Shown here in pieces: positions 1,644-63,190 of a stretch of 64,000 nucleotides of DNA. Below the pieces are notes generated by a model that worked only from the letters and a program-made list of their open reading frames with translations, made no database searches and was not told where the DNA came from. The position numbers were made by a program, and so were the translations under genes. Location: NCBI GenBank assembly GCA_964433215.1, contig CAYSQI010000002.1, positions 66,496 to 130,495 of the forward strand, read 5' to 3'. The stretch comes from an uncultured Bacteroides sp. Lineage in GTDB: Bacteria > Bacteroidota > Bacteroidia > Bacteroidales > Muribaculaceae. The first letter of the stretch is position 1. Each line of letters opens with the position of its first letter.

Positions 1644-3176
1644 TTATTGAAAGATTTGTTTAGTGGCGGAGTTGGCGGTGCGGCGGATGACGATTTGGCC
1701 CGGCTCGGGCGTCGCGATTGGCATTCCTTGCAGGTTGTAGAAGGTGGCGGGGGTGTCGGTGGGGTCGACGGTGGGGTCGTCGATGCCGAGGACTTCGGTG
1801 AGGTCGAGGTACATCGGTCCCGAGGTGTAGGAACCCTGTAGGTCGGTGAAGTTGACGTTCATCCAGTAGTCGGCGCCTTCGGTGATGAAGCCGACGTAGA
1901 TGTGGGCGACGTATGGGAAAGTGATGCGGCCGTTTTTGAGGAAGCCGCCGTAGCTAAGGTCTCGGATTTCTGCCTTCGTTTTACCTTGCGCCAAGAGTTG
2001 CGAAGCACGCGAAGCGATGCGGACGTCGCCGTCTTCTTCGGTGCGGTAACCCACGGGGCCTTCTTCGACGATCACGCAGTCGGGGTCGGAAGCGTCGAAG
2101 TATATGTAGTGGTCGTGCGAGCCGTGAGTGGCGGTCGACAGCACGTTGCCTTCGAAGTCCTTGAACGGGTTGACGATGCGGTAGCGCCCCGGGGTGTTGA
2201 CATCTTCCTGAACGTCAACCTCGATTTCGCCGAGTGTGAGGTCATAGGCATGAGTGACGGTGAAATCGTAAAACTGTGCTTTGCCCGGGAGGTCGCGCCA
2301 GCCGGTCGTGGCATCGGGCGCGTAGACTATGGTGTAATCGAATTCTTGAGTGTTGCCGTCGGCGTCGAAGGTGAAGGCCACGATGTAGACCGGTTGGCAA
2401 GGCTTGATGTCTGACGGGAGGACGATGAGGGTCTCTTGTCGTGGGGCCAAGCGTGCGTGATTTTTCAACACTGCGGCAATTTGTTCCGGGTCGTTCAAGT
2501 CCGTGACAGTGCCGACGATGATGTCGGCAACGTCGTCGCCGGCTTGTGCGGAGACGAGAGCTTTGCCATCGACCGCGCACCACGAGCTGCTGCTGAGTTC
2601 GATTGAGTAATCTTTTGCGTCGGGCAGCTCAAGTCGCCAAGCGCCGTTGGGGTTGCCACCGTAGCCTTGGCCGTTCTTATCGAGTGATGGTTGTGTTATC
2701 CAGAGCGCCCCCGGGGTGGGGAATGAAATAATGCCGTCCTTCAGCGTGCCTGTGAAGCCGAGGTTTTCGATGACGGCTTTCGACAGGTTGCCGTTTTTTG
2801 TCAGCCACGAGTAAGAGTACATGAAGTATTCTTCCTCGTGATATATAATTCCGAGGTTTGTCGGCTCGATGATTACAAAGTTGGGGTCAGTGGCGTCGAT
2901 GACCATGTATCGGGTAGCCTCGTCGTGGCTGACGTAGTAATCGTATTTTTCAATGTCGGGGTTGGATCGGATTGGCTCTACGATGCGATAGTAGCCTTCG
3001 TTGGCTACGTCTTTTTCGACTTCGACTCTATAAGAGGCGGGTTGAGTGTCGAAGATTATCGACAAAATGTCATCGGTGTACATTGCTGTTCCGAGCGACT
3101 GCCACTGATGTGGCGTTTGAGCGGCAGAAACAAAACCGAGTAAGGCTACGAGAGTGATTGTGTAGATTCTTTTCAT
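1644..3176 (-). CDS. Secreted hypothetical protein with an internally duplicated domain and a T9SS-like C-terminal sorting domain
   Basis: Signal peptide; two copies of W..L.G.A..D...V.V..D....G.YRIV.P...Y...DA.DP..V; C-terminus ATFYNLQGMPIATPEPGQIVIRRTANSATKQIF. Confidence 0.75.
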   Translation of the reverse strand: MKRIYTITLVALLGFVSAAQTPHQWQSLGTAMYTDDILSIIFDTQPASYRVEVEKDVANEGYYRIVEPIRSNPDIEKYDYYVSHDEATRYMVIDATDPNFVIIEPTNLGIIYHEEEYFMYSYSWLTKNGNLSKAVIENLGFTGTLKDGIISFPTPGALWITQPSLDKNGQGYGGNPNGAWRLELPDAKDYSIELSSSSWCAVDGKALVSAQAGDDVADIIVGTVTDLNDPEQIAAVLKNHARLAPRQETLIVLPSDIKPCQPVYIVAFTFDADGNTQEFDYTIVYAPDATTGWRDLPGKAQFYDFTVTHAYDLTLGEIEVDVQEDVNTPGRYRIVNPFKDFEGNVLSTATHGSHDHYIYFDASDPDCVIVEEGPVGYRTEEDGDVRIASRASQLLAQGKTKAEIRDLSYGGFLKNGRITFPYVAHIYVGFITEGADYWMNVNFTDLQGSYTSGPMYLDLTEVLGIDDPTVDPTDTPATFYNLQGMPIATPEPGQIVIRRTANSATKQIFQ

Positions 3177-3286
3177 AAGAAAAACACGATTGGAAAACGA
3201 ACTGTGGCAAAGGTAAGTATTTTGATAAAAAGCACAAAGGTTTTTTTGTGTTTTTGTAGAGAGTTCGCTAAGCGAGTGCTGAATAT

Positions 3287-3326
3287 AAAAAGAGCAATCC
3301 CGCTCCGAAGTGGGGGCGGGATTGCT
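3287..3326 (-). terminator. Intrinsic terminator of the OmpA gene
   Basis: AGCAATCCCGC...GCGGGATTGCT stem with A tract on the plus strand (U tract on the minus strand). Confidence 0.8.
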
Positions 3327-3348
3327 TAAGCTGTATGGTTAAAGATGC

Positions 3349-4560
3349 TTATTCAGCTTCTTCGATGGTGACAGCGCGGTCGAGCGAAACGTACTTTTCG
3401 CCGTCAACGGTGATGTTGCAGAGGCTGCCATTGTTGGTGGTAGCGGTGAGCTGCGATTCCGAAACGCCGAGTTTAACGAGCTGGTTGTAAACGCCGTTTA
3501 CGCGGTTGTGACGGAGGGTTTCGTTGTATTCGGGAGTACCGGTGTAGTTGTCGGCCCAGCCGGTGAGGACATACTTGGTGTTGGGGTTCTGCTTCATAAC
3601 GTTAGCAATAGCGCCAATCACGTTCTTGTCCGAGCGGGTGAGGCTGTAGACGTTGATGGGATAGTAGATAGTGGCAAGGGGAGCCTTTTCTTCAACAGTC
3701 TGCACGGTAGCGGGGCGGTTGAGGCATTCGCGGAGCGAGTTCTCGAGGTCGTTAACACGAGCTTCCGAGGTCGAGAGGCGAGCAACAACAGCGTCGCAGT
3801 TCTGAGCGGGCGGGCAAACGGGAACGACGGGAGCGTTCCATTCGGTCTTACCGAAGAGGTAGGTGAAGCCGAGGTAAGCCTGAACGTCGAGGAAAGTGGG
3901 GTTGCCTGTAGTAGCAGCACCGCCTTCGAAAGTGCCGTCGTAAGCCGAAGCACGGAGGTCGAGCGACAGAGCGAAGTTCTTGCAAAGGTTGAACGAGTTG
4001 ATGATACCGGCGCGGAAGGTGAGCACCTTGTCCGAGTTATCCCATCCATCAGCATCGCCCTTTGTGTCGAGCGAGCGGCCGAGCATCCAGTAGCCACCGG
4101 CACCGCCGTAGAGGCTGAGGTTGTATACGCGACCGGGCTTGTAGCCGCAGAAGAGGTTGGTCAGGTTAACCATGAGGTCGAAGGTAGGACCAACAGCCAT
4201 TTGGCGAGTCTTGTAGTGACCTTCGGTCATGTGTTCTTGGGGCAGATAGCCGAATGCGTTATCTTCGCCCATACCTTTGAGGTACATCCAGTCAACACCG
4301 AGGCGGCCACCGAAAACGGGTGTAAACCACTTGCCGACATAGAGAGCGGCGTTGGGAGCAAAACGGTCGCCGAAGTCGCGAACGACGTCGTGACGCGAGA
4401 AGTTAACGTTTACACCACCCTGTGCGGTGATAAACCAGTTGTCCTTGAAAGAGTTCATCAGGTAGCCCTGTGAGGGATCGGCCTGAGTCTGTGTTTCCTG
4501 GGCAGCCATAGGAGCAACGGCCAGGGCACATGCAGCAGCGATTAAAGTAATCTTCTTCAT
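3349..4560 (-). CDS. OmpA-family outer membrane protein (Bacteroidales OmpA/Pgm6-like)
   Basis: Signal peptide, NWFITAQGG beta-barrel start, C-terminal OmpA peptidoglycan-binding domain (IYYPIN...LTGWAD..TGT..YN..L...R). Confidence 0.92.
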   Translation of the reverse strand: MKKITLIAAACALAVAPMAAQETQTQADPSQGYLMNSFKDNWFITAQGGVNVNFSRHDVVRDFGDRFAPNAALYVGKWFTPVFGGRLGVDWMYLKGMGEDNAFGYLPQEHMTEGHYKTRQMAVGPTFDLMVNLTNLFCGYKPGRVYNLSLYGGAGGYWMLGRSLDTKGDADGWDNSDKVLTFRAGIINSFNLCKNFALSLDLRASAYDGTFEGGAATTGNPTFLDVQAYLGFTYLFGKTEWNAPVVPVCPPAQNCDAVVARLSTSEARVNDLENSLRECLNRPATVQTVEEKAPLATIYYPINVYSLTRSDKNVIGAIANVMKQNPNTKYVLTGWADNYTGTPEYNETLRHNRVNGVYNQLVKLGVSESQLTATTNNGSLCNITVDGEKYVSLDRAVTIEEAE

Positions 4561-4750
4561 AGGAGAATTAAGTTAGTTATGTTGATTAAATAAATTTTCG
4601 TCGCAAAGCCTATGATGACTTTTAGACCGCTAAGTTACGAAGTTTTATTGATATTACGACTAAAAAAGTTAAAAAAATGTTGATTTTGGCTGAATTTTTA
4701 ACTTTTGGGGTCAAATTTCGCCAAAAATTCCTTTTTTTGGCGAAATTGCT

Positions 4751-6778
4751 TTATTTCAGTAAGGCGCGAACTTGTTCGTAAATGTTTTGCGGAGTGAAGC
4801 CGAATTTTTCGTCGAGGACCTTGTAAGGAGCCGATGCACCGAAGCGCGACAGGCCGTAGACTGCGCCGTCGAAGCCTCGAATGGCGCGGAGCGTCGAGGG
4901 CAGGCCGGCAGTGAGGCCGAAGTGGGGCACGCCGGGAGTCAGCACGCTGTTGCGATACGAGGCGGCTTGTTCGTTGAACAGGCCGACAGATGGCATCGAC
5001 ACGACGCTGGCGGCGATGCCGTCGGCAGCGAGCATTTCGGCAACGGTGCTGAGGAGCGACACTTCCGAGCCGTTGGCCACGAGGATTACTTTGGGGTCTT
5101 CAGCGGCGACGACTGTGTAGCCGCCACGGCGTACGCCGGCAGCGTCGGCGAGGCGGTTGCCGGTGGTCGATGGCAGGTCGTTGATGTCCTGGCGGGTGAG
5201 GATGAGAGCGGTGGGGGTTGCATCGTTCTGCATGGCCATATCCCAGCAAATCATGGTCTCGGCGGTGTCGGCCGGGCGAAGTACGAGCAGTGACGGGCGG
5301 CCTTCGAAGTTGCGAACTTCTTCGAGCAGACGAATCTGGGCTTCCTGTTCGATGGGCTCGTGTGTGGGTCCGTCTTCGCCGACGCGGAATGAGTCGTGTG
5401 TCCAGACGTATTTGACGGGGAGCCGTTGCAGGGCGGCCATGCGCACGGCGGGCTTCATGTAGTCGGAGAATACGAAGAATGTGCCGCAAGCGGTCTGGAT
5501 GCCGCCGTGTAGTGCGATGCCGTTCATGATGGAGGCCATGGTGAGCTCGGCTACGCCGGCGTGGAGGAAAGCACCGTCGAATTTGCCGGGTTCGAATGCT
5601 CCGCGCACTTTCTGGAATGCTTCGGTTTTGTCGGAGTTGGCAAGGTCGGCCGAAGACACAATCATGTTGGGCACGTGGCGGGCGAGCCAGTCGAGCACGT
5701 TGGCCGATGCGGTGCGAGTGGCGATGTTGGGCTTGTTGACGATTTCGCAGAAGTCAACAGCGGGCATACGGCCGCTCATCCACTGCTCGAATTCGGCAGC
5801 GAGTTCGGGGTTGGCAGCAGCCCAGGCAGCGATTTCGGCACGGCGTTTGCCGACAATCTCGCGCAGCTCGGCTTCGCGAGCGGCGTACAGCGCCTTGGTG
5901 TCGTCGAAGATCTGCCACGGATTTTCGGGGTCGCCTCCGAGGTTTGCGACAGTGGCGGCGAAGTCGGCTCCGCTCTTGCTCAGCGGCTGGCCGTGGGTCG
6001 AGCATTGGCCTTCAAAGTTGGAGCCGTCGGCTTTGACGCAGCCTTTGCCCATGATGGTGCGGCCGATGATGAGGGTGGGGCGCTTGTCTTCGTTCTGAGC
6101 TTCGATGATGGCTTTTTCGATTTGCGCGGGGTCGTTGCCGTCGATGTCGATGACATTCCAGCCCCAAGCCTTGTACTTGGCGGCATAGTCTTCTTCGTCG
6201 ACAGCGTCGACGTCGGTCGACAGCTGCACACCGTTGCAGTCGTAGAACATGATGAGGTTGGCTAGGCCGAGGTATCCGGCGATGCGGCCGGCGCCTTGCG
6301 AGATTTCTTCTTGGATGCCGCCGTCGGAGATGAAAGCGTAGGTCTTGTGGGCGTATGCTTCGCCGAAGTGAGCGGCGATGAATCGTTCGGCCAGCGCAGC
6401 GCCGACGGCCATGGTGTGTCCTTGTCCGAGGGGGCCGCTGGTGTTTTCGATGCCACGTCGCGGGTCGACTTCGGGGTGTCCGGGTGTGACGCTACCCCAC
6501 TGGCGGAACTGCTGCAACTCATCGATAGAGTACTTACCCGTCAATGCCAATACGGCATAAAGCATCGGCGACATGTGGCCGGGGTCGAGGAAGAAACGGT
6601 CGCGGGCGGGCCAGGTGGGGTCGTCGGGATCGGTAATCAGGAAGCGCGAATAGAGCGTGTTGACAAAGTCGGCGCCACCCATGGCTCCGCCGGGGTGTCC
6701 TGATTTTGCTTTTTCGACCATTGCAGCGGCGATGATACGGATGTTGTCGGCCGCGTGATTCATGACGTTTGTGTCCAT
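4751..6778 (-). CDS. tkt: Transketolase
   Basis: KSGHPGGAMG, RDRFFLDPGH, SGPLGQG, SDGGIQE (TPP binding), THDSFRVGEDGPTHEP. Confidence 0.97.
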   Translation of the reverse strand: MDTNVMNHAADNIRIIAAAMVEKAKSGHPGGAMGGADFVNTLYSRFLITDPDDPTWPARDRFFLDPGHMSPMLYAVLALTGKYSIDELQQFRQWGSVTPGHPEVDPRRGIENTSGPLGQGHTMAVGAALAERFIAAHFGEAYAHKTYAFISDGGIQEEISQGAGRIAGYLGLANLIMFYDCNGVQLSTDVDAVDEEDYAAKYKAWGWNVIDIDGNDPAQIEKAIIEAQNEDKRPTLIIGRTIMGKGCVKADGSNFEGQCSTHGQPLSKSGADFAATVANLGGDPENPWQIFDDTKALYAAREAELREIVGKRRAEIAAWAAANPELAAEFEQWMSGRMPAVDFCEIVNKPNIATRTASANVLDWLARHVPNMIVSSADLANSDKTEAFQKVRGAFEPGKFDGAFLHAGVAELTMASIMNGIALHGGIQTACGTFFVFSDYMKPAVRMAALQRLPVKYVWTHDSFRVGEDGPTHEPIEQEAQIRLLEEVRNFEGRPSLLVLRPADTAETMICWDMAMQNDATPTALILTRQDINDLPSTTGNRLADAAGVRRGGYTVVAAEDPKVILVANGSEVSLLSTVAEMLAADGIAASVVSMPSVGLFNEQAASYRNSVLTPGVPHFGLTAGLPSTLRAIRGFDGAVYGLSRFGASAPYKVLDEKFGFTPQNIYEQVRALLK

Positions 6779-17911: not shown

Positions 17912-19519
17912 TTACTTTACTTTGATAGCAATCCAGGCCGGGCGGCGCGTGTCGGCCAGGCGGCGTTTCAGTGTGTCGAGGCGATAGGTGTCGGGCAGGC
18001 CGACGGTGTCGGTTGCGTGTGGAATGATAAGGACTGTGCCGACGGGCTTCGATTTGGCCTCTGTGATGTCTGTCAGACGGCGCAAGCGGTCGCCGGTGTA
18101 GAAGTTGATGCAATAAGCATTTGCGACGATTTTATCGGGTCCTACGACGAAAATAGGATTATCACCGGCGATAGCTTCGATACGGGCGGCGTCGGCTTTG
18201 TCCGACAGTCGGTTGACGGCTGCGGGCATCAGTGCGCCACCATAGCAAGTAAGCAGCGCTGTCGTGATGACGCTTGCGCTCAAAATGCCGCTGTCGTCGC
18301 GATTTTTAAGCCACCAAATGATTGCTGCAGTAGGCGGCAAGAGAAGCAGAATGTACGCCCACCATGGCGCGCCGGCCATTGTGAACCCGGCCACCGGGCA
18401 GAATGTGGTGACGACGGCAAACAGAGGCGCTACGATGGCTATCGCACTTATTATGTAGGTGTAGATGCGGTTGATGCGCGTGGCTTTGAGGCCTTCGGCC
18501 AGCGAGGCTACGGCATAGGCCAAGAATGGATAGACGGGCAGCAGGTAGACACTGCGTTTGCTGGCAGGGATGCAGTAGAAGACTGTGACGACAACGATGA
18601 CAGTCAGCGCAAGGCGTCCGGCGGGCTTGAGTGATTGGCGTTTGAAGTGGCGCCGAGCGGCAATGGCCATCAGCGCGAGCAATGTCCACGGCAACATACC
18701 TACGATGATGGTCTGGAAATTGTACCAGAATGGGTTGACGTGCGATTCGTAGGGCATAGTGCCGGTGAGGCGCTGGAAGTTTTCTTCCCATACGAGTGCG
18801 AGGAACGAGTCGCCGCCGTCGAGCCATGCAAGATAGTACCACACGGCAGGTATGATGCAGGCAGCTATTGATAGGCCTAACATTCGCGCGAGTGTGCTGA
18901 GGAAGCGCTCGCCGCTCAGCAGGTAGTAGATGCCCATGACGAAGCATGGAAGTAGAGCTCCGACCGGCCCTTTTGTGAGCACGGCGCAGGTCAGCAGCGA
19001 CGTGGCCGCTATGTAGCGCCAAGCTGTGCCGCGGCCCGGGTCGGTCTGAATCCTGTATAGGAGGTAAATAGCCCCGACCATGCAGGCTGTCAGCACCATA
19101 TCGACGCGGCAAGCCACCGCAGCGCGGTAGACCTCGACCGAAGTGGCCAGCACGAGCGACATGACTAAGGCAAAGCGCTCGCCGCGCTCGCGGCGCGCCC
19201 AGAAGTAGCCGCCCATGACCATGGCAATAGCTGCGATGGCCGATGGCAGGCGCGAGATGAATTCGTTGACTACGCCGCCGTTGAATATCTTGGCGAAAAT
19301 GGCGATGAGCCAAGCCAGAAACGGGGGCTTGTATGGTATGTCGGTGCCATAGTTTACCGGCAAGATCCAGTCGCCCGACTGTAGCATCGATAGGGCGACG
19401 ATGGCTTCGCGAGGTTCGCCTTTTGAGTAAAACAATGTTTCGCCAAGCCAAGGAATCCACAGGATTGCGAGGCCGATGAAGAGCACGAGGCTCGGTCTGA
19501 GGTTAATCGGTCGTTTCAT
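17912..19519 (-). CDS. ArnT/PMT_2-like (GT83-type) membrane glycosyltransferase
   Basis: SKGEPREA...DWILP...YKPPFLAW, RLPSA, VDMVLT, LTKGPVG, SKRSVYLLP; start moved to MKRPINL (19519). Confidence 0.88.
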   Translation of the reverse strand: MKRPINLRPSLVLFIGLAILWIPWLGETLFYSKGEPREAIVALSMLQSGDWILPVNYGTDIPYKPPFLAWLIAIFAKIFNGGVVNEFISRLPSAIAAIAMVMGGYFWARRERGERFALVMSLVLATSVEVYRAAVACRVDMVLTACMVGAIYLLYRIQTDPGRGTAWRYIAATSLLTCAVLTKGPVGALLPCFVMGIYYLLSGERFLSTLARMLGLSIAACIIPAVWYYLAWLDGGDSFLALVWEENFQRLTGTMPYESHVNPFWYNFQTIIVGMLPWTLLALMAIAARRHFKRQSLKPAGRLALTVIVVVTVFYCIPASKRSVYLLPVYPFLAYAVASLAEGLKATRINRIYTYIISAIAIVAPLFAVVTTFCPVAGFTMAGAPWWAYILLLLPPTAAIIWWLKNRDDSGILSASVITTALLTCYGGALMPAAVNRLSDKADAARIEAIAGDNPIFVVGPDKIVANAYCINFYTGDRLRRLTDITEAKSKPVGTVLIIPHATDTVGLPDTYRLDTLKRRLADTRRPAWIAIKVK

Positions 19520-19614
19520 ATTTGGCAAAGATAGCCAATAATTCTGAATATTTTGCGAGTTATATCGACTTTTTTGCCGGTTTGTCAGACACATAAATAC
19601 GGCACATAAATACG

Positions 19615-19651
19615 GCGGCCCGACTGCAGGACGAGCTGCGAGTCGGGCCGC
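19615..19651 (-). terminator. Hairpin downstream of the malic enzyme gene
   Basis: GCGGCCCGACT...AGTCGGGCCGC 11-bp stem. Confidence 0.6.
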
Positions 19652-19678
19652 TATGATTTTGTGTGTTTGTAAGCGCGA

Positions 19679-21028
19679 TTATTGGCGTTGCTTAGGTGTG
19701 AAGCTACACTCGGATTGAGCCTTGATGAGGTAGCGTATCAGGGCGTCGTCGGTGCATTTGATGTATTCGAGGCTGCGAGCGTAGGCTTCGTAGTCGTCGA
19801 TGTGTCGACGCGCTACTCCCGAGGCCTCGGCGGCAGCGATGATGGCGGGCGCCACGGTGGTGAGCAGGCGGCGGTCGAAGGGCTTGGGCAAGATGTAGTG
19901 TCTGCCAAATCGCAGGTCGGGCTCGCCGTAGGCGGCTGCGAGGTCGTCGGGCACGGGCTCGTGAGCGAGCGCGGCGATGGCGATTGCGGCGGCTTTTTTC
20001 ATCTCTTCATTGATGCAAGTGGCGCGGCAGTCGAGGGCGGCGCGGAAGATGTAGGGGAAGCCGAGCACGTTGTTGATTTGGTTGGGATAGTCCGAACGGC
20101 CGGTGGCGAAAACGAGGTCGCTGCGCGAGCCTACGGCGGCCTCGTAGGCAATCTCGGGGTTGGGATTTGCCAGGGCGAAGACGATAGGTCGCTGAGCCAT
20201 CGATTTTATCATGTCGGGGGTAAGCACGTCGGCTACGGACAGGCCGAGGAACACGTCGGCATCGCGCATGGCATCGGCCAGGCTGTGCAGGTCGGTGCGG
20301 GTGGTGACAAATCGGCGTTTGAACTCGTTGAGGTCGGTGCGGCCGGTGTGAATCACGCCTTTCGAGTCGCACATGATGATGTTTTCGCGCTTCAGTCCGA
20401 GCGCGCAGTAGAGGTTGGTGCAGGCCATGGCGGCTGCGCCGGCGCCGTTGACAACGAGGCGAACCTTGCTGATGTCCTTTGCTTGGAGCTCGAGTGCGTT
20501 GAGCAGACCGGCGGCCGATATGATGGCTGTGCCGTGCTGGTCGTCGTGCATCACGGGGATTGAGCATTCGCGTTTGAGTGAATCTTCGATTTCGAAACAT
20601 TCAGGGGCTTTGATGTCCTCGAGGTTGATGCCACCGAAGGTCGGTGCGAGCGATTTGACGATTTCGACGAAGCGTTTGGGGTCTTTTTCGTTGATTTCGA
20701 TGTCGAATGCGTCGAGTCCGGCGAAAATTTTGAAGAGCAGCGCTTTACCTTCCATGACCGGCTTTGCGGCTTCAGCGCCTATGTCGCCGAGGCCGAGGAC
20801 GGCGGTGCCGTTGCTGATGACGGCTACGAGGTTGCCGCGCGATGTGTATTCGTAGGCAGCAGTGGGGTCGTCTTTGATGGCCAGGCAGGGGTACGCAACG
20901 CCCGGCGAGTAGGCCAAGGCTAAGTCGGCCGGAGTGTTATAGGGCTTGGTCGGCACGACTTCGATTTTGCCTGGTTTGGGCAGTCGATGGTAGTCGAGCG
21001 CCTCGCGTTCGGTAGTTTCTTTGTTCAT
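19679..21028 (-). CDS. NAD(P)-dependent malic enzyme, MaeB-type catalytic part without the PTA domain
   Basis: [78 protein letters not shown]. Confidence 0.95.
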
Positions 21029-28093: not shown

Positions 28094-28232
28094 TAAATAA
28101 TATTTAGGTCTAAGATTCAAGGATATTATTAAGGATTATTCAGAAGGAATTTACAAGGATTAAAAAAATGGTTTTAGGTATTTAGTGTTAGACCACACAC
28201 AGAAAAGTCGAACCGCGAGGTTCGACTTTTCT
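28094..28232 (+). ncRNA. Candidate small noncoding RNA downstream of the DUF6377 regulator
   Basis: TAAATTTG -7 motif (28081-28088), about 140 nt with no credible ORF, AAGGA at 28119/28131/28144/28155, ends in a strong GCGA-loop terminator. Confidence 0.5.
28201..28232. terminator. Bidirectional intrinsic terminator
   Basis: AGAAAAGTCGAACC-GCGA-GGTTCGACTTTTCT perfect 14-bp stem. Confidence 0.88.
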
Positions 28233-59757: not shown

Positions 59758-60410
59758 TGAATCCGCTCCCCTTTTTGAACCAACTGGCGGTCAATAACGA
59801 CCGCCGGTGGTTTGCTGCACACCGCGACGAATACGAGCAGATGCGCCGCGGCTGGATTGCCGATGTCGATCGCTTCATCGCTGCCTGCACGCAGTGGGAG
59901 CCGGCCTATGGGCATCTGAGCGCTGTCGATTGCATTTATCGCATATATCGCGACACGCGCTTTTCGCCCGACAAGACGCCGTACAAGACTCACATGGGCG
60001 CTTATTTGTCGCCTCGCGGCCGACGAATCAACATGGCCGGGGTCTACATTCAGGCCGGTGGCGATATGAATGGCCTCTACTCGGGTCTATGGATGCCACA
60101 GAGCGACGAACTGCGCAAGTTGCGCCATGCTATCGTGGACAATATCGAGGAGTTTGAGGCTATTATCAACGAACCGACGTTCAAAAGCCGGTTTCCCGAG
60201 TGGTCGGGTCCGCAGTTGAAGACTATACCGAAAGGCTGGCCGCGCGAGCATCCGCAAGCACACTTGCTGCGCTTGCTCAGCTATGGCGTGCAACTTGAAG
60301 TCGATGATAGCTTTTGGGACGACCCGGCGTGGCCCGAGCGAGCCGCCGACCTCCTCGCTCCGACCAAGCCTCTTCTCGACTTCCTCAATTATTCCCTCTT
60401 TGAAGAGTAA
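59757..60410 (+). CDS. DUF2461-family protein
   Basis: NNDRRWF..HR..Y, RIYRDTRFSPDKTPYK, LKTIPKG. Confidence 0.9.
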   Translation: MNPLPFLNQLAVNNDRRWFAAHRDEYEQMRRGWIADVDRFIAACTQWEPAYGHLSAVDCIYRIYRDTRFSPDKTPYKTHMGAYLSPRGRRINMAGVYIQAGGDMNGLYSGLWMPQSDELRKLRHAIVDNIEEFEAIINEPTFKSRFPEWSGPQLKTIPKGWPREHPQAHLLRLLSYGVQLEVDDSFWDDPAWPERAADLLAPTKPLLDFLNYSLFEE

Positions 60411-60485
60411 AAATAGTCTCGGCGCTCTAAGAGGTAATCAAAAAATATGTGTAAAACCTTTGGTCGTATCAGATTATTTTAATAC

Positions 60486-60523
60486 TTTTGCATCGTTTTA
60501 GTGTGGATTAAAACGATGCAAAA
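60486..60523. promoter_or_regulatory. Perfect 15-bp inverted repeat overlapping the -7 promoter motif (operator candidate)
   Basis: TTTTGCATCGTTTTA-(8 nt)-TAAAACGATGCAAAA; TACTTTTG promoter motif at 60483-60490; ATG at 60533. Confidence 0.75.
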
Positions 60524-60532
60524 TCGATTAAA

Positions 60533-61495
60533 ATGAAGGACGTAGTCATATTAGGAAGGCCCATACAGCTGCAAGAACGAAGCAAGGTGCAGATGAAGGG
60601 TGTCGCCATCGGTGACGCGCTGACATACAAGTTTTATGATGGAGAGTTTCATGGTATACCCTTACTTTTCGCAGAACCGAAAGGCAAGGTGGCGACCCCA
60701 CTAAGTCTGTCTGTCACAGCCAATAACCTCGCTTCACTTTTCCAGCGTCCAATAGTATTCTTACTTCCAACTTGTCCTGCTTATGAACGACAAAGGCTTA
60801 TTGATAAGGATGTTTATTTCGTTGTCAATGACAAATACGTTCATTTGCCAATGCTTCTGGCCAACGAGCGCATACGTAAGAGCAAAAAGGCTAAGTCATT
60901 GACTCCCGTTGCCCAATACTTGTTGCTCTATCACTTGCAGATAGACAGCCTTGAAGGGCGCGCCGCTCGTGACATTGAGAACAAGGTGCCGTATTCATAC
61001 GCAAGTATTACGCTTGGAATTACTTGCCTTGAAGACCTGGGACTATGCCATAAAGTGGCAGATGGTTCCAAACGGAAAGTTATCCACTTCGACAAGAAGG
61101 GAAAGGATTTGTGGAAACAGGCACAACCGCTTCTTATCAATCCAGTAGAAGAGCGCCTTTTTTGCGATGAGTTGCAGTGTGAAGGGCATTTTCCAACATG
61201 TGGCATCAACGCCTTAGCACATTACACTATGCTAAATCCTGACCCGGAAAGGATTATAATGATGACGGCAAGACAGCTTCGTGACCTTCGTGCATCAGGT
61301 GTTTTAGTGCGCCCTAATGAATACGATGGCAACATCATCATTGAAGCTTGGAAATACCCATGCGTCACCTGCATGGGTGATAAGATCGAATGGGTTGATA
61401 GGCTATCATTGGCCATTTCACTCCGTGATGATGCAGACCCACGAGTGGAAGGAGAAGTAGAACGTTTGATAAATGATATACAATGGAAGGATTAG
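60533..61495 (+). CDS. Winged-HTH protein resembling AbiEi-type (type IV TA) antitoxin/regulators
   Basis: Central wHTH-like LTPVAQYLLLYHL...SYASIT..ITCLEDLGL; C-terminal CGINALAHYTML...VDRLSLAISLR.D.DPRV; stop overlaps the next gene. Confidence 0.62.
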   Translation: MKDVVILGRPIQLQERSKVQMKGVAIGDALTYKFYDGEFHGIPLLFAEPKGKVATPLSLSVTANNLASLFQRPIVFLLPTCPAYERQRLIDKDVYFVVNDKYVHLPMLLANERIRKSKKAKSLTPVAQYLLLYHLQIDSLEGRAARDIENKVPYSYASITLGITCLEDLGLCHKVADGSKRKVIHFDKKGKDLWKQAQPLLINPVEERLFCDELQCEGHFPTCGINALAHYTMLNPDPERIIMMTARQLRDLRASGVLVRPNEYDGNIIIEAWKYPCVTCMGDKIEWVDRLSLAISLRDDADPRVEGEVERLINDIQWKD

Positions 61496-62268
61496 AGCGA
61501 TTTCGTGAAGCTTTTGAAGATTATTCCGAGAACTACGTTATCATTGGCGGCACAGCATGTAGCATCGCTATGACCGGGACAACAGTACGCCCACGCGCCA
61601 CACACGACATCGACATGATTGTTATTGTCGAGAAGATGACTACTAATTTTACAGAACATTTCTGGCAATTTGTGCGAGAAGGCGGGTATCGTCCCGAAAA
61701 ACGCAAGCAATCAGAGGATGTGACTCCGAAGTACGAGTTGTACCGCTTTGTAAATGGTAAACCGGACTATCCGGAAATGATTGAATTGCTGTCGCGCCAT
61801 CCTGATATTCTTGGCATCCCCAAAGGTCTGACCATCGAGCCTCTACCTGTCGACGAGAATACGTCAAGTCTGAGTGCAATCATAATGGATGATGATTTCT
61901 ATCACTTTACCATCGACCATAGTAAAATGACTAACGGGCTTCGTCATGCTGACTCGGCAGCTCTTATCGCCCTAAAAACACGTGCCTACCTCAACCTCTT
62001 GCAAGACAAAGCTAACGGCAAGCGTGTCAACAGTAAAGATATCAAGAAACATCGTTCTGACGTACTAAAGAATGTGGTCATCATGGAAGACGTTAAGATT
62101 GCGGCTCCGGAGCCAATCGTATGCTGCATCAAAGAGTTTGTCGCCTCAATCAGGAACGACTGGGAAACGCTTTCTGAACCTCTTGCCAAGGCTCTTGACC
62201 AGGATCCTTCGTTCATCGAGGCTCTGCTTGAACAATTAGATGGATTATTTGCCATAGAACAGTCATGA
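61483..62268 (+). CDS. AbiEii-like nucleotidyltransferase
   Basis: YVIIGGTA...RATHDIDMIV (GG.A and D.D of the Pol-beta NTase fold), IALKTRAY, KKHRSDV. Confidence 0.78.
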   Translation: MEGLERFREAFEDYSENYVIIGGTACSIAMTGTTVRPRATHDIDMIVIVEKMTTNFTEHFWQFVREGGYRPEKRKQSEDVTPKYELYRFVNGKPDYPEMIELLSRHPDILGIPKGLTIEPLPVDENTSSLSAIIMDDDFYHFTIDHSKMTNGLRHADSAALIALKTRAYLNLLQDKANGKRVNSKDIKKHRSDVLKNVVIMEDVKIAAPEPIVCCIKEFVASIRNDWETLSEPLAKALDQDPSFIEALLEQLDGLFAIEQS

Positions 62269-63026
62269 AGATACAGTATGCGTCTGACCTCCATCTGGAG
62301 TTTGCCGACAACTGGCGATACCTGAAGGAGAATCCCCTGCAAGTGACAGGGAACATTCTCGTTCTGGCTGGCGACATCGGCTACTTGGGGGATGACAACT
62401 ATACCAAACATCCTTTCTGGGACTGGGCATCGGAGAACTACCAGCAGGTAATAGCCTGTATGGGCAATCATGAGTTCTACAAGTTCTACGACATCGCCAA
62501 ACTGAATGACGGCTATTGTCTTGAAATACGTTCCAATGTTCACAGCTATTACAACGCTGTGGTGCATATTGATGACGTTGATTTCATCATCACTACACTA
62601 TGGTCCATAATTCCTCTGAAAGACGCATACTATACGGAGCGAGTGGTAAGCGACTTTCGGCGCATCGTCTTCAATAGCGAAATGCTTACGTTTGCCGACT
62701 TCAACCGTGAACATGAAAAATGTCTGGCATTTCTGAAAAATGCTGTTTCAAGCAGCAAGGCCGCCAAAAAGATTGTCATAACCCATCATGTTCCATCCTT
62801 CCGAATGCAATGCCCGAAGTTTGCCGACAGCCAAGCCAACGGAGCCTTCATAGTGGAACTAGAAGACTTCATAGAGGACAGCGGCATCAACTATTGGATA
62901 TATGGCCACTCGCACTACAATGTGGATGTCGAGATAGGCAAAACCAAATGTGTGTCGAATCAGTTGGGATACGTCTTTCATAGAGAGCATGAATCATTCA
63001 ATCAAAGTAAACATATCGAAGTATAA
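62265..63026 (+). CDS. Calcineurin-like metallophosphoesterase
   Basis: SDLHLE, LAGDIG, GNHEFY, THHVP, GHSH; ATGA overlap with the NTase gene. Confidence 0.92.
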   Translation: MKIQYASDLHLEFADNWRYLKENPLQVTGNILVLAGDIGYLGDDNYTKHPFWDWASENYQQVIACMGNHEFYKFYDIAKLNDGYCLEIRSNVHSYYNAVVHIDDVDFIITTLWSIIPLKDAYYTERVVSDFRRIVFNSEMLTFADFNREHEKCLAFLKNAVSSSKAAKKIVITHHVPSFRMQCPKFADSQANGAFIVELEDFIEDSGINYWIYGHSHYNVDVEIGKTKCVSNQLGYVFHREHESFNQSKHIEV

Positions 63027-63129
63027 TCACTAATTCTATCGGGGCATATTTGTTGCTTAAGTTGGATTGTTCGAGCTATTCGCTTAAATTATAATAACTT
63101 TGCAGTGCAAACAGACGGATAAAAATTAA

Positions 63130-63156
63130 AGTGCCGAGACTTTTTGCCTCGGCACT
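63130..63156. terminator. Intrinsic terminator between the island and pyrC
   Basis: AGTGCCGAG-ACTTTTTGC-CTCGGCACT hairpin. Confidence 0.72.
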
Positions 63157-63190
63157 CTAAAATTTAGGTATATCTTTGGTATGTAATGCT

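Follow-up and report, generated by a model that had tools for sequence, protein, structure and literature searches.

A metallophosphoesterase gene coupled to a putative AbiE/MenT-like toxin-antitoxin pair in mobile elements of gut Bacteroidales: a possible self-contained phospho-switch

Why should a metallophosphoesterase gene be translationally coupled to two genes that resemble an AbiE toxin-antitoxin pair? The question is raised by a three-gene cassette near the end of a 64,000-nucleotide (nt) stretch of contig CAYSQI010000002.1 from an uncultured Bacteroides sp. (assembly GCA_964433215.1), and the whole of this stretch is hereafter called the window. An earlier interpretation made from the DNA letters (the sequence-only reading) had described the cassette as a tripartite AbiE-like module, and had proposed that the third protein could activate the toxin by dephosphorylation, remove the nucleotide that the toxin adds, or degrade a nucleotide signal. 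Comparison with other loci indicates that the phosphoesterase is quite probably coupled in function to the other two genes, which probably constitute a toxin-antitoxin-like pair. The answer favoured here, and only tentatively, is a toxin-antitoxin (type VII-like) or abortive-infection switch: the first protein, by analogy with characterised systems, would induce autophosphorylation of the second, and the third would remove the phosphate. The three genes are as follows.

60533-61495, plus strand: P1, an open reading frame of 320 amino acids (aa), regulator and putative antitoxin
61483-62268, plus strand: P2, an open reading frame of 261 aa, DUF1814-type (AbiEii/MenT-like) nucleotidyltransferase (NTase), putative toxin
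62265-63026, plus strand: P3, an open reading frame of 253 aa, calcineurin-like metallophosphoesterase

P1 and P2 overlap by 13 bp (ATGGAAGGATTAG, with the P1 stop codon TAG at 61493-61495 inside it), and the stop codon of P2 and the start codon of P3 share the tetranucleotide ATGA (62265-62268), both as read directly from the sequence. The GC content is 0.42-0.48 over the three genes vs 0.55-0.67 in both flanks. The overlapping stop and start codons and the AT-rich composition described by the sequence-only reading are thus both present.

Gene neighbourhoods were collected in several scans, in each of which the best 80 loci were counted; because some elements are represented by several near-identical loci, independent events are fewer than the locus counts suggest. 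A scan restricted to one genome per species yielded 306 loci with a P2 relative, and the best 80 of them were all from Bacteroidales, except for a few records bearing implausible organism labels. P1 lay upstream of P2 and overlapped it in 78 of these 80 genome loci, the other two being cut by contig ends. P3 accompanied P2, with translational coupling, in 77; the three loci lacking it comprised two intact pairs (L033 and L039) and one truncated P2 (L023). Coupling of P2 to P3, either through ATGA or over 0-18 nt, was kept across about 40-100% P2 identity, and the triad was retained down to 51% (L102) and 40% (L184) P2 identity. Linkage of the phosphoesterase to the pair, the frequency of which the sequence-only reading had left to be checked, is therefore not rare in these genome loci.

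The pair itself has a wider distribution. In a distant clade of 80 metagenome loci (L104-L183), about 35% identical to P2, a P1 homologue preceded the NTase gene, usually overlapping it, in 63 loci, and most of the others were cut by contig ends (P1 matches had E-values of 1e-10 to 1e-28, with one marginal case at 1e-4). No P3 homologue followed the pair in any of these 80 loci; the downstream gene varied, encoding a DUF4062/NIR protein, an S1-domain protein, a SIR2-STAND protein, an AAA_15/21 ATPase or something unrelated. Pairs without P3 are also carried by plasmids, most of them conjugative, in Pseudomonas, Edwardsiella, Latilactobacillus, sphingomonads and rhizobia (e.g. L280 2000-3765 and L281 1985-3759), where the first gene is sometimes annotated by PGAP as 'MarR family transcriptional regulator' and otherwise as hypothetical. 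Since the pair occurs alone across phyla, the ancestral unit is taken to be P1-P2, and P3 an addition of the Bacteroidales clade. The description as a three-component module thus holds for the near-constant triad of the genome loci, but not for the core of the system: in many phyla the two genes P1 and P2 occur without P3.

The neighbourhoods of P3 were collected from 80 loci of a viral collection, which probably includes fragments of integrative and conjugative elements (ICEs) and prophages, with P3 genes 50-83% identical to that of the window. They comprised 62 full triads, three loci cut by contig ends, eight with an AbiEi-AbiEii pair and seven with an AAA_14 ATPase. In the AbiE-linked group, P3 is followed after about 66 nt by genes for canonical AbiEi (matching 6Y8Q at E 5e-14) and AbiEii (matching 9HLO_B at E 7e-39, and carrying T65-V-D67-I-D69). 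The P3 genes directly upstream of these AbiEi_4-AbiEii pairs are 50-55% identical to P3 of the window and reside in Mu-like prophages; loci with this arrangement are given below.

L267 3501-5786; L269 3501-5802; L252-L256 and L258-L260 4001-6298: P3 with AbiEi_4-AbiEii in Mu-like Bacteroidales prophages, the pair matching the S. agalactiae proteins closely

With P3 of L253 as the query, this arrangement was kept over P3 identities from 97% to 71%. Its cargo slot lies between the tape-measure gene and DUF2586, and the triad occupies the same slot in L272, L276 and L282. In an independent sample of ten P3 clusters carrying precomputed Pfam labels, six were triads, two had a Metallophos+AbiEi_4+AbiEii arrangement and two an AAA_14+Metallophos arrangement, one of the latter with DUF4143. 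The presence of two unrelated-looking DUF1814 pairs beside one phosphoesterase family is the strongest argument for a functional link.

The identity of P2 had to be established through its relatives. Alone, P2 of the window gives no PF08843 match, only DUF6036 NTase at E 0.023, below the cut-off, and it has no significant match among the sequences of the PDB. A P2 profile search of 1.84 billion representatives recovered 2,353 representative clusters, and a diverse set of 78 full-length members, with 31-49% identity to P2 of the window, was taken from them. Twenty-five of the 78 match Pfam AbiEii at E 0.01 or better. Among them, P0241, a 261-aa protein with 49% identity, reaches 25.2 bits (gathering threshold 22.5) over profile positions 8-206 of 238, and P0301 reaches 29.1 bits over about 200 of the 238 positions. 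Membership of the window protein in DUF1814 is transitive, since its relatives, and not P2 itself, pass the PF08843 threshold; on this sequence evidence P2 is concluded to be a divergent DUF1814 enzyme. The proposal that the middle gene encodes an AbiE-like NTase was thereby upheld at the level of the AbiEii/MenT (DUF1814) superfamily, through relatives above the Pfam threshold and the family profile.

The motifs of the protein are located as follows.

61546-61614, plus strand: P2 motifs I and II with the putative phospho-acceptor, G22-G23 ... T40-H-D42-I-D44
61975-62061, plus strand: P2 C-terminal nucleotide-binding motifs, K165-T-R-A168-Y169 (motif III-like, KxxAa) and K189...D193

The polymerase beta-type motifs I and II (hG[GS] and DhD) appear in P2 as I-I-G22-G23 ... 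D42-I-D44, with a spacing of 18 residues vs the classical 9-13; a longer motif I-II spacing has been remarked for AbiEii too (Dy et al. 2014). G22, G23, A25, T40, D44, Y69, P97, E101, K165, A168, K189 and D193 are invariant in the 78 sequences, and D42 is nearly so. Against the PDB, the P2 family profile found MenT1 and 5UVD only (E 0.1-0.3), and the match to MenT1 (8AN4) is weak (E 0.31) and spans the N-terminal 45 residues. In this alignment R-A-T40-H-D42-I-D44 of P2 stands opposite R-F-T39-R-D41-V-D43. A Ser/Thr two residues before the first catalytic Asp is thus represented by T40 of P2, opposite T39 of MenT1 and patterned like T65-V-D67-I-D69 of AbiEii. Motifs III and IV have been defined for DUF1814 enzymes (Dy et al. 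2014). Of the COG4849 form of motif III, KLxAaxxR, P2 has the Lys, the Ala and the aromatic residue (K165-T-R-A168-Y169-L-N-L), without the final Arg. It has no literal +DxxD (motif IV), and the invariant K189-H-R-S-D193 in that place is likely the counterpart of D192 in AbiEii and D152 in MenT1. T40, D42, K165 and, probably, D193 of P2 correspond to T39, D41, K137 and D152 of MenT1, which are listed as 'highly conserved' residues of the NTase fold (PMC11375011).

Alignment of the P2 family with canonical AbiEii by hhalign was confined to the GG...DxD core. AlphaFold2 models of P1 and P2, built on alignments of 19-20 sequences with at least 72% identity, were of low quality: P2 reached a mean predicted local distance difference test score (pLDDT) of 59, with an unreliable NTase half, and P1 a pLDDT of 35. 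A Foldseek search of the PDB with the poor P2 model returned nothing below E 0.2. Four NTases of the family (P0258, P0267, P0270 and P0344) bear C-terminal extensions of 120-210 aa. These were considered as possible fusions and set aside as uninformative; by reading they resemble neither P1 nor P3, with no search aimed at the extensions.

P3 matches Pfam PF00149 (Metallophos) with 56.3 bits (cut-off 21.5) and E 7.5e-15, and contains the complete metal-binding motifs D8-x-H10, G36-D37, G67-N-H-E70, H174-H175 and G214-H-S-H217. D8, D37, N68, H69, H174, H175, H215 and H217 are invariant in 20 homologues of 62-89% identity, and H10 is nearly so. The assignment of the third gene as a metallophosphoesterase is thereby upheld, with its active site intact. 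P3 also matches phrog_1649 ('metallo-phosphoesterase') at 9.6e-38, and its family comprises 4,502 proteins at E 1e-10 or better; there is no significant match of P3 of the window among the PDB sequences. The protein is a bare 253-aa catalytic domain without a ligand-sensing domain.

What such an enzyme may do beside a DUF1814 toxin is suggested by the regulation of the characterised members, as worked out in 2024-2026. In the presence of its antitoxin MenA1, MenT1 is induced to phosphorylate itself at T39, and MenA3 has the same effect on MenT3 at S78 (PMC11375011); AbiEi induces autophosphorylation of AbiEii at T65, which abolishes its NTase activity (bioRxiv 10.64898/2026.01.19.700257). According to the latter work, phosphorylation of AbiEii is undone in vitro by the host PP2C phosphatase SaSTP, and re-activation of the toxin would need phosphatases ('cellular phosphatases'), which 'remains to be explored'. 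The sequence-only reading had regarded some of these antitoxins as kinases that phosphorylate the toxin; the literature instead has them inducing toxin autophosphorylation (PMC11375011; bioRxiv 10.64898/2026.01.19.700257).

By analogy, the following scheme is proposed. P1 would repress the operon through its MarR-type winged helix bound to the promoter inverted repeat, as the position and conservation of that repeat suggest. Active P2, like MenT and AbiEii, would halt translation by adding nucleotides to the 3' ends of tRNA. P1 would silence P2 by inducing its self-phosphorylation at Thr40, two residues before Asp42; this residue is the candidate acceptor because it is invariant, lies opposite the MenT1 acceptor and belongs to the same T-x-D-x-D pattern as in AbiEii. 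P3 would strip the phosphate from Thr40, and silencing would then be a continuous P1-dependent cycle instead of a dead end. If P1 were titrated, blocked or not made, upon phage infection or loss of the element, the silent toxin would be re-armed at once without a host phosphatase. The balance of the cycle, set by the fast-evolving P1, would decide between growth and translational arrest. The idea of a dephosphorylating eraser appears more plausible given the invariant Thr and the second link of P3 to canonical AbiE. That phospho-P2 is the substrate of P3 is possible rather than probable, and a similarly guarded view is taken of the wider proposal that elements of gut Bacteroidales recruited the P3 family independently to two distant DUF1814 lineages, each forming a self-contained phospho-switch.

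Several observations weigh against this scheme. Invariance of T40 is no proof of phospho-regulation, because this Thr is also a general residue of the catalytic core, and the structure models were too poor to bear on interfaces. P1 cannot be recognised as a homologue of AbiEi or MenA, and the Pfam AbiEi models match neither P1 of the window nor any of 26 diverse relatives. The P1-P2 pair lacks P3 in most lineages and, within the clade of the window, in L033 and L039. Seven of the 80 P3-side loci have an AAA_14/DUF4143 ATPase gene followed by P3. Loci with this arrangement are given below.

L277 2291-4265; L278 2219-4268; L249, L251, L257, L262 and L264-L266 about 2570-4762: AAA_14 (with DUF4143) ATPase, a gap of 8-13 nt, then P3

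This ATPase-P3 pair lies in prophages, flanked by the genes for a ClpP-like protease and a Mu-type portal. It persists even where the ATPase alleles share just 49% identity, and may be an uncharacterised two-gene system. Because of this pairing, and of P3 homologues of 25-31% identity that stand alone in more than 160 large phages with generic annotation only, the function of P3 need not depend on a DUF1814 toxin.

The enzyme class of P3 points the same way. Protein phosphatases of the PPP family carry the signatures GDxHG, GDxVDRG (GDxxDRG) and GNH[DE]; the corresponding segments of P3 are S-D-L-H-L, G-D-I-G-Y-L-G and G-N-H-E, so that only the third is present. On the sequence evidence, the missing signatures lower the likelihood that P3 is a PPP phosphatase, but not that it can remove phosphate from a protein. 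The set DxH/GD/GNHE/H/GHxH is typical of phosphodiesterases and nucleases, the nearest, non-significant neighbours of P3 (MPPED2 at E 0.14 by structure and YfcE at E 0.05) are both phosphodiesterases, and relatives of P3 are labelled 'predicted phosphodiesterase' by JGI. On account of the motif set and the weak nearest neighbours, the class of P3 leans towards a diesterase, contrary to the simplest form of the favoured model.

The same features would suit an enzyme acting on the product of P2, namely a phosphodiesterase or 3' exonuclease on tRNA or other RNA 3' ends that would either undo the additions of P2, as a second antitoxin that repairs the target and makes the arrest reversible, or prepare or aggravate the lesion as a co-toxin. 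The link to two DUF1814 lineages fits a common product as well as a common phospho-site, pairing with an ATPase recalls the SbcCD/Mre11-Rad50 logic (an analogy from general knowledge), and the relatives in lytic jumbo phages could be counter-defence repair enzymes. Those phage homologues are, however, only 25-31% identical and generically annotated, no nuclease-specific feature or RNA-binding domain was found in P3, and constitutive repair by a co-translated enzyme would blunt the toxin when it is needed. Nor is P3 an essential antitoxin, as the pair is viable without it. This explanation is considered unlikely.

Another reading makes P3 itself the effector, cleaving NAD+ or another nucleotide like MisA of Metis, with P1-P2 as its regulator or sensor, or as an adjacent toxin-antitoxin pair in one defence operon. 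The PF00149 domain is said to occur in many predicted defence systems, and proteins of this family are known as NAD+-cleaving defence effectors (bioRxiv 10.1101/2025.11.05.686725). P3 shows a weak match to the PADLOC candidate defence family PDC-S10 (E 3e-7, over a partial stretch), and its pairing with an ATPase resembles a sensor and an effector. In other clades the pair is often followed by a gene of NADase type (DUF4062/NIR, SIR2-STAND or SIR2_2). At least ten metagenome loci encode, 49 nt 3' of the pair, a protein of 471-483 aa with an N-terminal DUF4062 (NIR NADase) domain, as listed here.

L117, L118, L119, L129-L131, L133, L134, L137 and L150 (e.g. L129 6808-8232): P1-P2 pair followed by the DUF4062/NIR protein

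An S1-domain protein follows the pair in L163-L167 and L176, and a SIR2-STAND protein in L146; in L282, SIR2_2 lies 6 nt after the triad. A variable slot for NADase effectors behind the pair was considered on these grounds, and the idea was weakened by the distance of about 50 nt to the DUF4062 and SIR2 genes and by their self-contained appearance (NIR-sensor fusion; Avs-like). For these two reasons such neighbours show a defence-island context and not an effector slot, and look like independent systems. The absence of a ligand-sensing domain and of a HAD partner also separates P3 from Metis, and a NAD+ pyrophosphatase made together with P2 and under no control would be toxic to the cell. An effector role for P3 is likewise rated as unlikely.

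The first gene is the least conserved of the three. P1 has 789 homologues; alone, P1 of the window has no family match in domain libraries, and against the PDB only a non-significant one (3F3X, E 0.1). Relatives again provided the assignment, through an alignment of 26 sequences (21-82% identity) taken from genes upstream of distant P2 relatives. Fourteen of the 26 match MarR_2 or MarR and nine match HTH_27 (best 4e-7) in Pfam, and the family profile matches structures of the MarR family (4MNU at E 7e-4) over residues of about 126-194. The domain is placed as follows.

60905-61132, plus strand: P1 winged helix-turn-helix (wHTH), about aa 125-200, MarR-type as shown via relatives

Because the wHTH matches are confined to the centre, P1 is divided into an N-terminal domain (aa 1 to about 120), the MarR-type wHTH and a C-terminal domain (about aa 205-320). 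The last, of about 115 aa, has the conserved pattern G-x-S-A-L ... W-x-Y ... D-x-L-S. A CARF-like sensor in the N-terminal domain was considered and rejected, since the PADLOC matches to Csa3/CARF3/CasR cover the wHTH only (about 120-200). As in AbiEi, the gene lies upstream of the NTase gene and overlaps it, but the wHTH is central and not N-terminal. Alignment of the P1 family with canonical AbiEi_3 by hhalign gave nothing, and one remote member has a marginal PADLOC AbiEi match (E 0.005, aa 130-249). Of the description as a wHTH antitoxin-like protein, the winged helix and the antitoxin position were confirmed; the likeness to AbiEi models was not, and an additional N-terminal domain (about 120 aa) precedes the wHTH.

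Since P1 matches MarR-type regulators only, and some homologues carry the corresponding PGAP label, the cassette could be something other than a toxin-antitoxin system: a MarR-type regulator controlling an NTase that modifies a small molecule or nucleic acid, in the manner of a resistance enzyme, with P3 as a partner in the pathway. PADLOC 2.0.0 lends itself to this explanation, as neither P1 nor P2 of the window matches its AbiE models (P2 matched only PDC-M21B, at E 0.034); these models would consequently miss the cassette, and the check with this tool named by the sequence-only reading did not recognise the window proteins as AbiE. On the other side, members of the P2 family match AbiEii over the full length and above the Pfam threshold, and P2 has the DUF1814-specific C-terminal Lys and Asp motifs and the phospho-acceptor Thr. 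The gene overlap, the operator-like repeat, the mobile and defence contexts and the fast-changing P1 alleles are typical of toxin-antitoxin or defence modules. The modifying-enzyme explanation is accordingly regarded as very improbable.

Mean pairwise identity across loci is 0.64 for P1, and 0.77 for both P2 and P3, which makes P1 the fastest-evolving protein of the cassette. In 24 pairs of loci the P1 allele differs by more than 20% and P2 and P3 differ by less than 8-10%; P1 has thus been exchanged independently of P2-P3, and exchange of P3 without P2 was never seen in this comparison. Such behaviour would be expected of a sensor or antitoxin partner.

Retention of P3 with P2 also bears on the view that P3 is general phosphoesterase cargo, directed against phage kinases or host nucleotide signals, with no mechanistic tie to P1-P2. 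Every context in which it occurs is a cargo hotspot of Mu-like prophages, ICEs or mobilisable elements, it has at least three different neighbours, and phage kinases that inactivate defences are reported (PMC13645617). An unattached passenger would hardly keep the ATGA or 0-18-nt coupling at about 40-100% P2 identity, nor would recombination that separates P1 be expected never to split P2 from P3; nor is chance a likely reason for DUF1814 toxin-antitoxin pairs making up two of its three partners. Independent cargo is therefore rated as very unlikely.

In one setting the cassette borders an ICE-like region, beside genes for SSB, UmuDC-like proteins and RadC, and what lies downstream of it varies, BREX and AbiE being among the neighbours; elsewhere it adjoins MobC/relaxase, Mob_Pre or integrase genes, and it is also found in the cargo hotspots of Mu-like prophages. 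Near-identical or identical cassettes were present in records labelled Oscillibacter, Dechloromonas, Waltera, Lactococcus garvieae and Paratractidigestivibacter (L048, L054, L078, L079 and L005), which are most likely errors of binning or contamination and not cases of transfer between phyla.

Regulation of the triad is suggested by the region upstream of P1, which contains two overlapping elements.

60486-60500 TTTTGCATCGTTTTA and 60509-60523 TAAAACGATGCAAAA, unstranded: inverted repeat with perfect 15/15 arms and an 8-nt spacer
60483-60490, plus strand: putative Bacteroidetes-type -7 box TACTTTTG (TAnnTTTG), read from the sequence and overlapping the inverted repeat

The inverted repeat ends 10 nt 5' of the ATG of P1. 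Its arms are longer than any in 300 shuffles of the 3.2-kb region, where the longest perfect inverted repeat was 11 nt, in agreement with the operator-like palindrome of the sequence-only reading. The window has only two other perfect inverted repeats of at least 13 nt (loop 3-12), at 4714-4747 and 28201-28232, which may be terminators. TAnnTTTG is the -7 promoter consensus of Bacteroidetes, and in other triad loci checked by eye an equivalent TAnnTTTG lies directly 5' of a conserved GCATCGTTTTAAT. The motif TTTGCATCGTTTTAAT-N5-6-ATTAAAATGWWGCA, the left arm of which adjoins the TAnnTTTG box, is kept in essentially all of 58 distinct triad upstream regions, the neighbouring DNA having diverged. 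By analogy, this conserved promoter repeat parallels the inverted repeats through which AbiEi represses its own promoter. Related variants are represented in metatranscriptomes of bovine, pig and sheep gut by contigs that run across both gene junctions (P1/P2 and P2/P3), and one of these contigs has a single mismatch over 179 nt. They are consistent with co-transcription, and contaminating DNA is a possible source.

The limits of the cassette were defined both by an empty site and by the extent of DNA similarity, and the features concerned are listed below.

60411-63190, unstranded: island by the empty site, 2,780 nt, where near-identical strains have a 76-nt GC-rich spacer
60436-63030, plus strand: cassette core by blastn against 80 loci, with the promoter/operator region and the three genes
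60418-60436 CTCGGCGCTCTAAGAGGTA and 63148-63166 CTCGGCACTCTAAAATTTA, unstranded: imperfect 19-nt direct repeat, 79% identity, bracketing the insert
63126-63160, unstranded: GC-rich hairpin 3' of P3, 15 pairs with a T-run on the minus strand, terminator-like for the converging dihydroorotase-like gene (minus strand)

In contigs L091 and L092, an upstream DUF2461 protein identical to that of the window is followed by the 76-nt spacer and then by the converging dihydroorotase-like gene. By blastn, similarity to about 80 other loci sets in abruptly at 60436 (in many loci) and ends at 63026-63030, with no flanks in common. Thus, the promoter region and the three genes form a discrete 2.6-kb cassette, and the island-like ends suspected before are substantiated by the empty site and these sharp edges. 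The cassette has no recombinase of its own, and the two-copy direct repeat bracketing the insert may be due to chance.

The last codons of the DUF2461 gene beside the insertion (window 60380-60410 vs L091 1650-1686) show clustered synonymous differences, the proteins being identical, and the 160 nt past P3 (63031-63190) have no counterpart in the empty site or in other cassettes. These two observations suggest that the cassette came in, together with flanking DNA, through homologous recombination, the donor being a relative in which it was present at this site. A second TAnnTTTG-like box (TAACTTTG, 63095-63110) lies in the unique AT-rich stretch 3' of P3 and is directed into the dihydroorotase-like gene, antisense to it; it may be a leftover of a donor promoter.

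Searches of the accessible literature found no description of a DUF1814 pair with an operon-encoded phosphoesterase, as the sequence-only reading had supposed when it did not recognise such a system, and the sources name the relatives examined only 'hypothetical protein' or 'MarR family regulator'. The closest known counterpart is AbiE of S. agalactiae and Lactococcus lactis, now assigned to type VII. Both have a gene for a wHTH protein overlapping a DUF1814 NTase gene, and inverted repeats in the promoter, the T-x-D-x-D motif and carriage by mobile elements are likewise found in the cassette. The P3 family, moreover, also adjoins canonical AbiE in Bacteroidales prophages. The cassette differs in that P2 of the window is too divergent for direct detection as AbiEii by Pfam or PADLOC, and P1 has 320 aa vs about 195 aa in AbiEi, with the wHTH in mid-protein and no match to COG5340/AbiEi hidden Markov models. 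It also has a third coupled phosphoesterase gene, unlike characterised AbiE, which consists of two genes and has host phosphatases at most. One contig (L082) bears a canonical AbiEi_3-AbiEii pair without a phosphoesterase (18746-20408), 8 kb downstream of a triad; its AbiEii had no match in the PDB. Two DUF1814 systems can therefore share one element, and canonical AbiE is not always accompanied by P3.

Among the MenA1-MenT1 and MenA3-MenT3 systems of Mycobacterium tuberculosis, MenT1 (COG4849) is the best relative of the P2 family with a solved structure, at the marginal E of 0.31, and shares with P2 a motif III with KxxA-aromatic of COG4849 type. However, MenA1 is small and lacks a wHTH, and there is no phosphatase in the operon; only the host PstP has been shown to dephosphorylate MenT3, in vitro. 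The widespread and uncharacterised COG4861-COG4849 pairs (Dy et al. 2014) have a wHTH protein before a COG4849-type DUF1814 NTase, like P1-P2, and no third gene is described for them. P1-P2 probably belongs to this class, given the form of motif III and the best match to MenT1.

Defence operons that contain a PF00149 enzyme or an accessory phosphatase are also known, namely Metis (the calcineurin-like NAD+ pyrophosphatase MisA and the HAD phosphatase MisB) and Vesta (a NIR NADase and an alkaline phosphatase), in which the accessory phosphatases tune the system rather than kill. The present cassette is set apart from them by architecture, as P3 lacks a ligand-sensing domain or a HAD or NIR partner and has P1, P2 and the dihydroorotase-like gene as neighbours. 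The kinase-kinase-phosphatase (KKP) module of Pf prophages (PMC11341870) is another prophage-borne, toxin-antitoxin-like phospho-switch with its own phosphatase that affects phage defence. Its proteins are unrelated Ser/Thr kinases, and its phosphatase is an antidote and does not re-arm a toxin.

The pair uncovered here represents a large wHTH + NTase two-gene family of 2,353 representative clusters, distributed over several phyla and among plasmids, ICEs, prophages and defence islands. If the favoured scheme is true, the triad would be the first toxin-antitoxin or abortive-infection system of the DUF1814 (AbiE/MenT, type VII) kind to bring its own toxin-re-arming phosphoesterase, and P3 may be the missing dedicated re-arming enzyme of AbiE/MenT toxins. 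An operon that joins a phosphoesterase to such a toxin makes the question of re-activation directly testable with three small genes. If P3 is instead a tRNA-end diesterase or an NAD+-cleaving effector, the cassette would reveal a new accessory logic for DUF1814 toxins. In Bacteroidales of the human and animal gut the triad is very abundant, single 90%-identity clusters containing up to about 10,000 sequences, and it may therefore affect gut phage-host dynamics and the stability of mobile elements.

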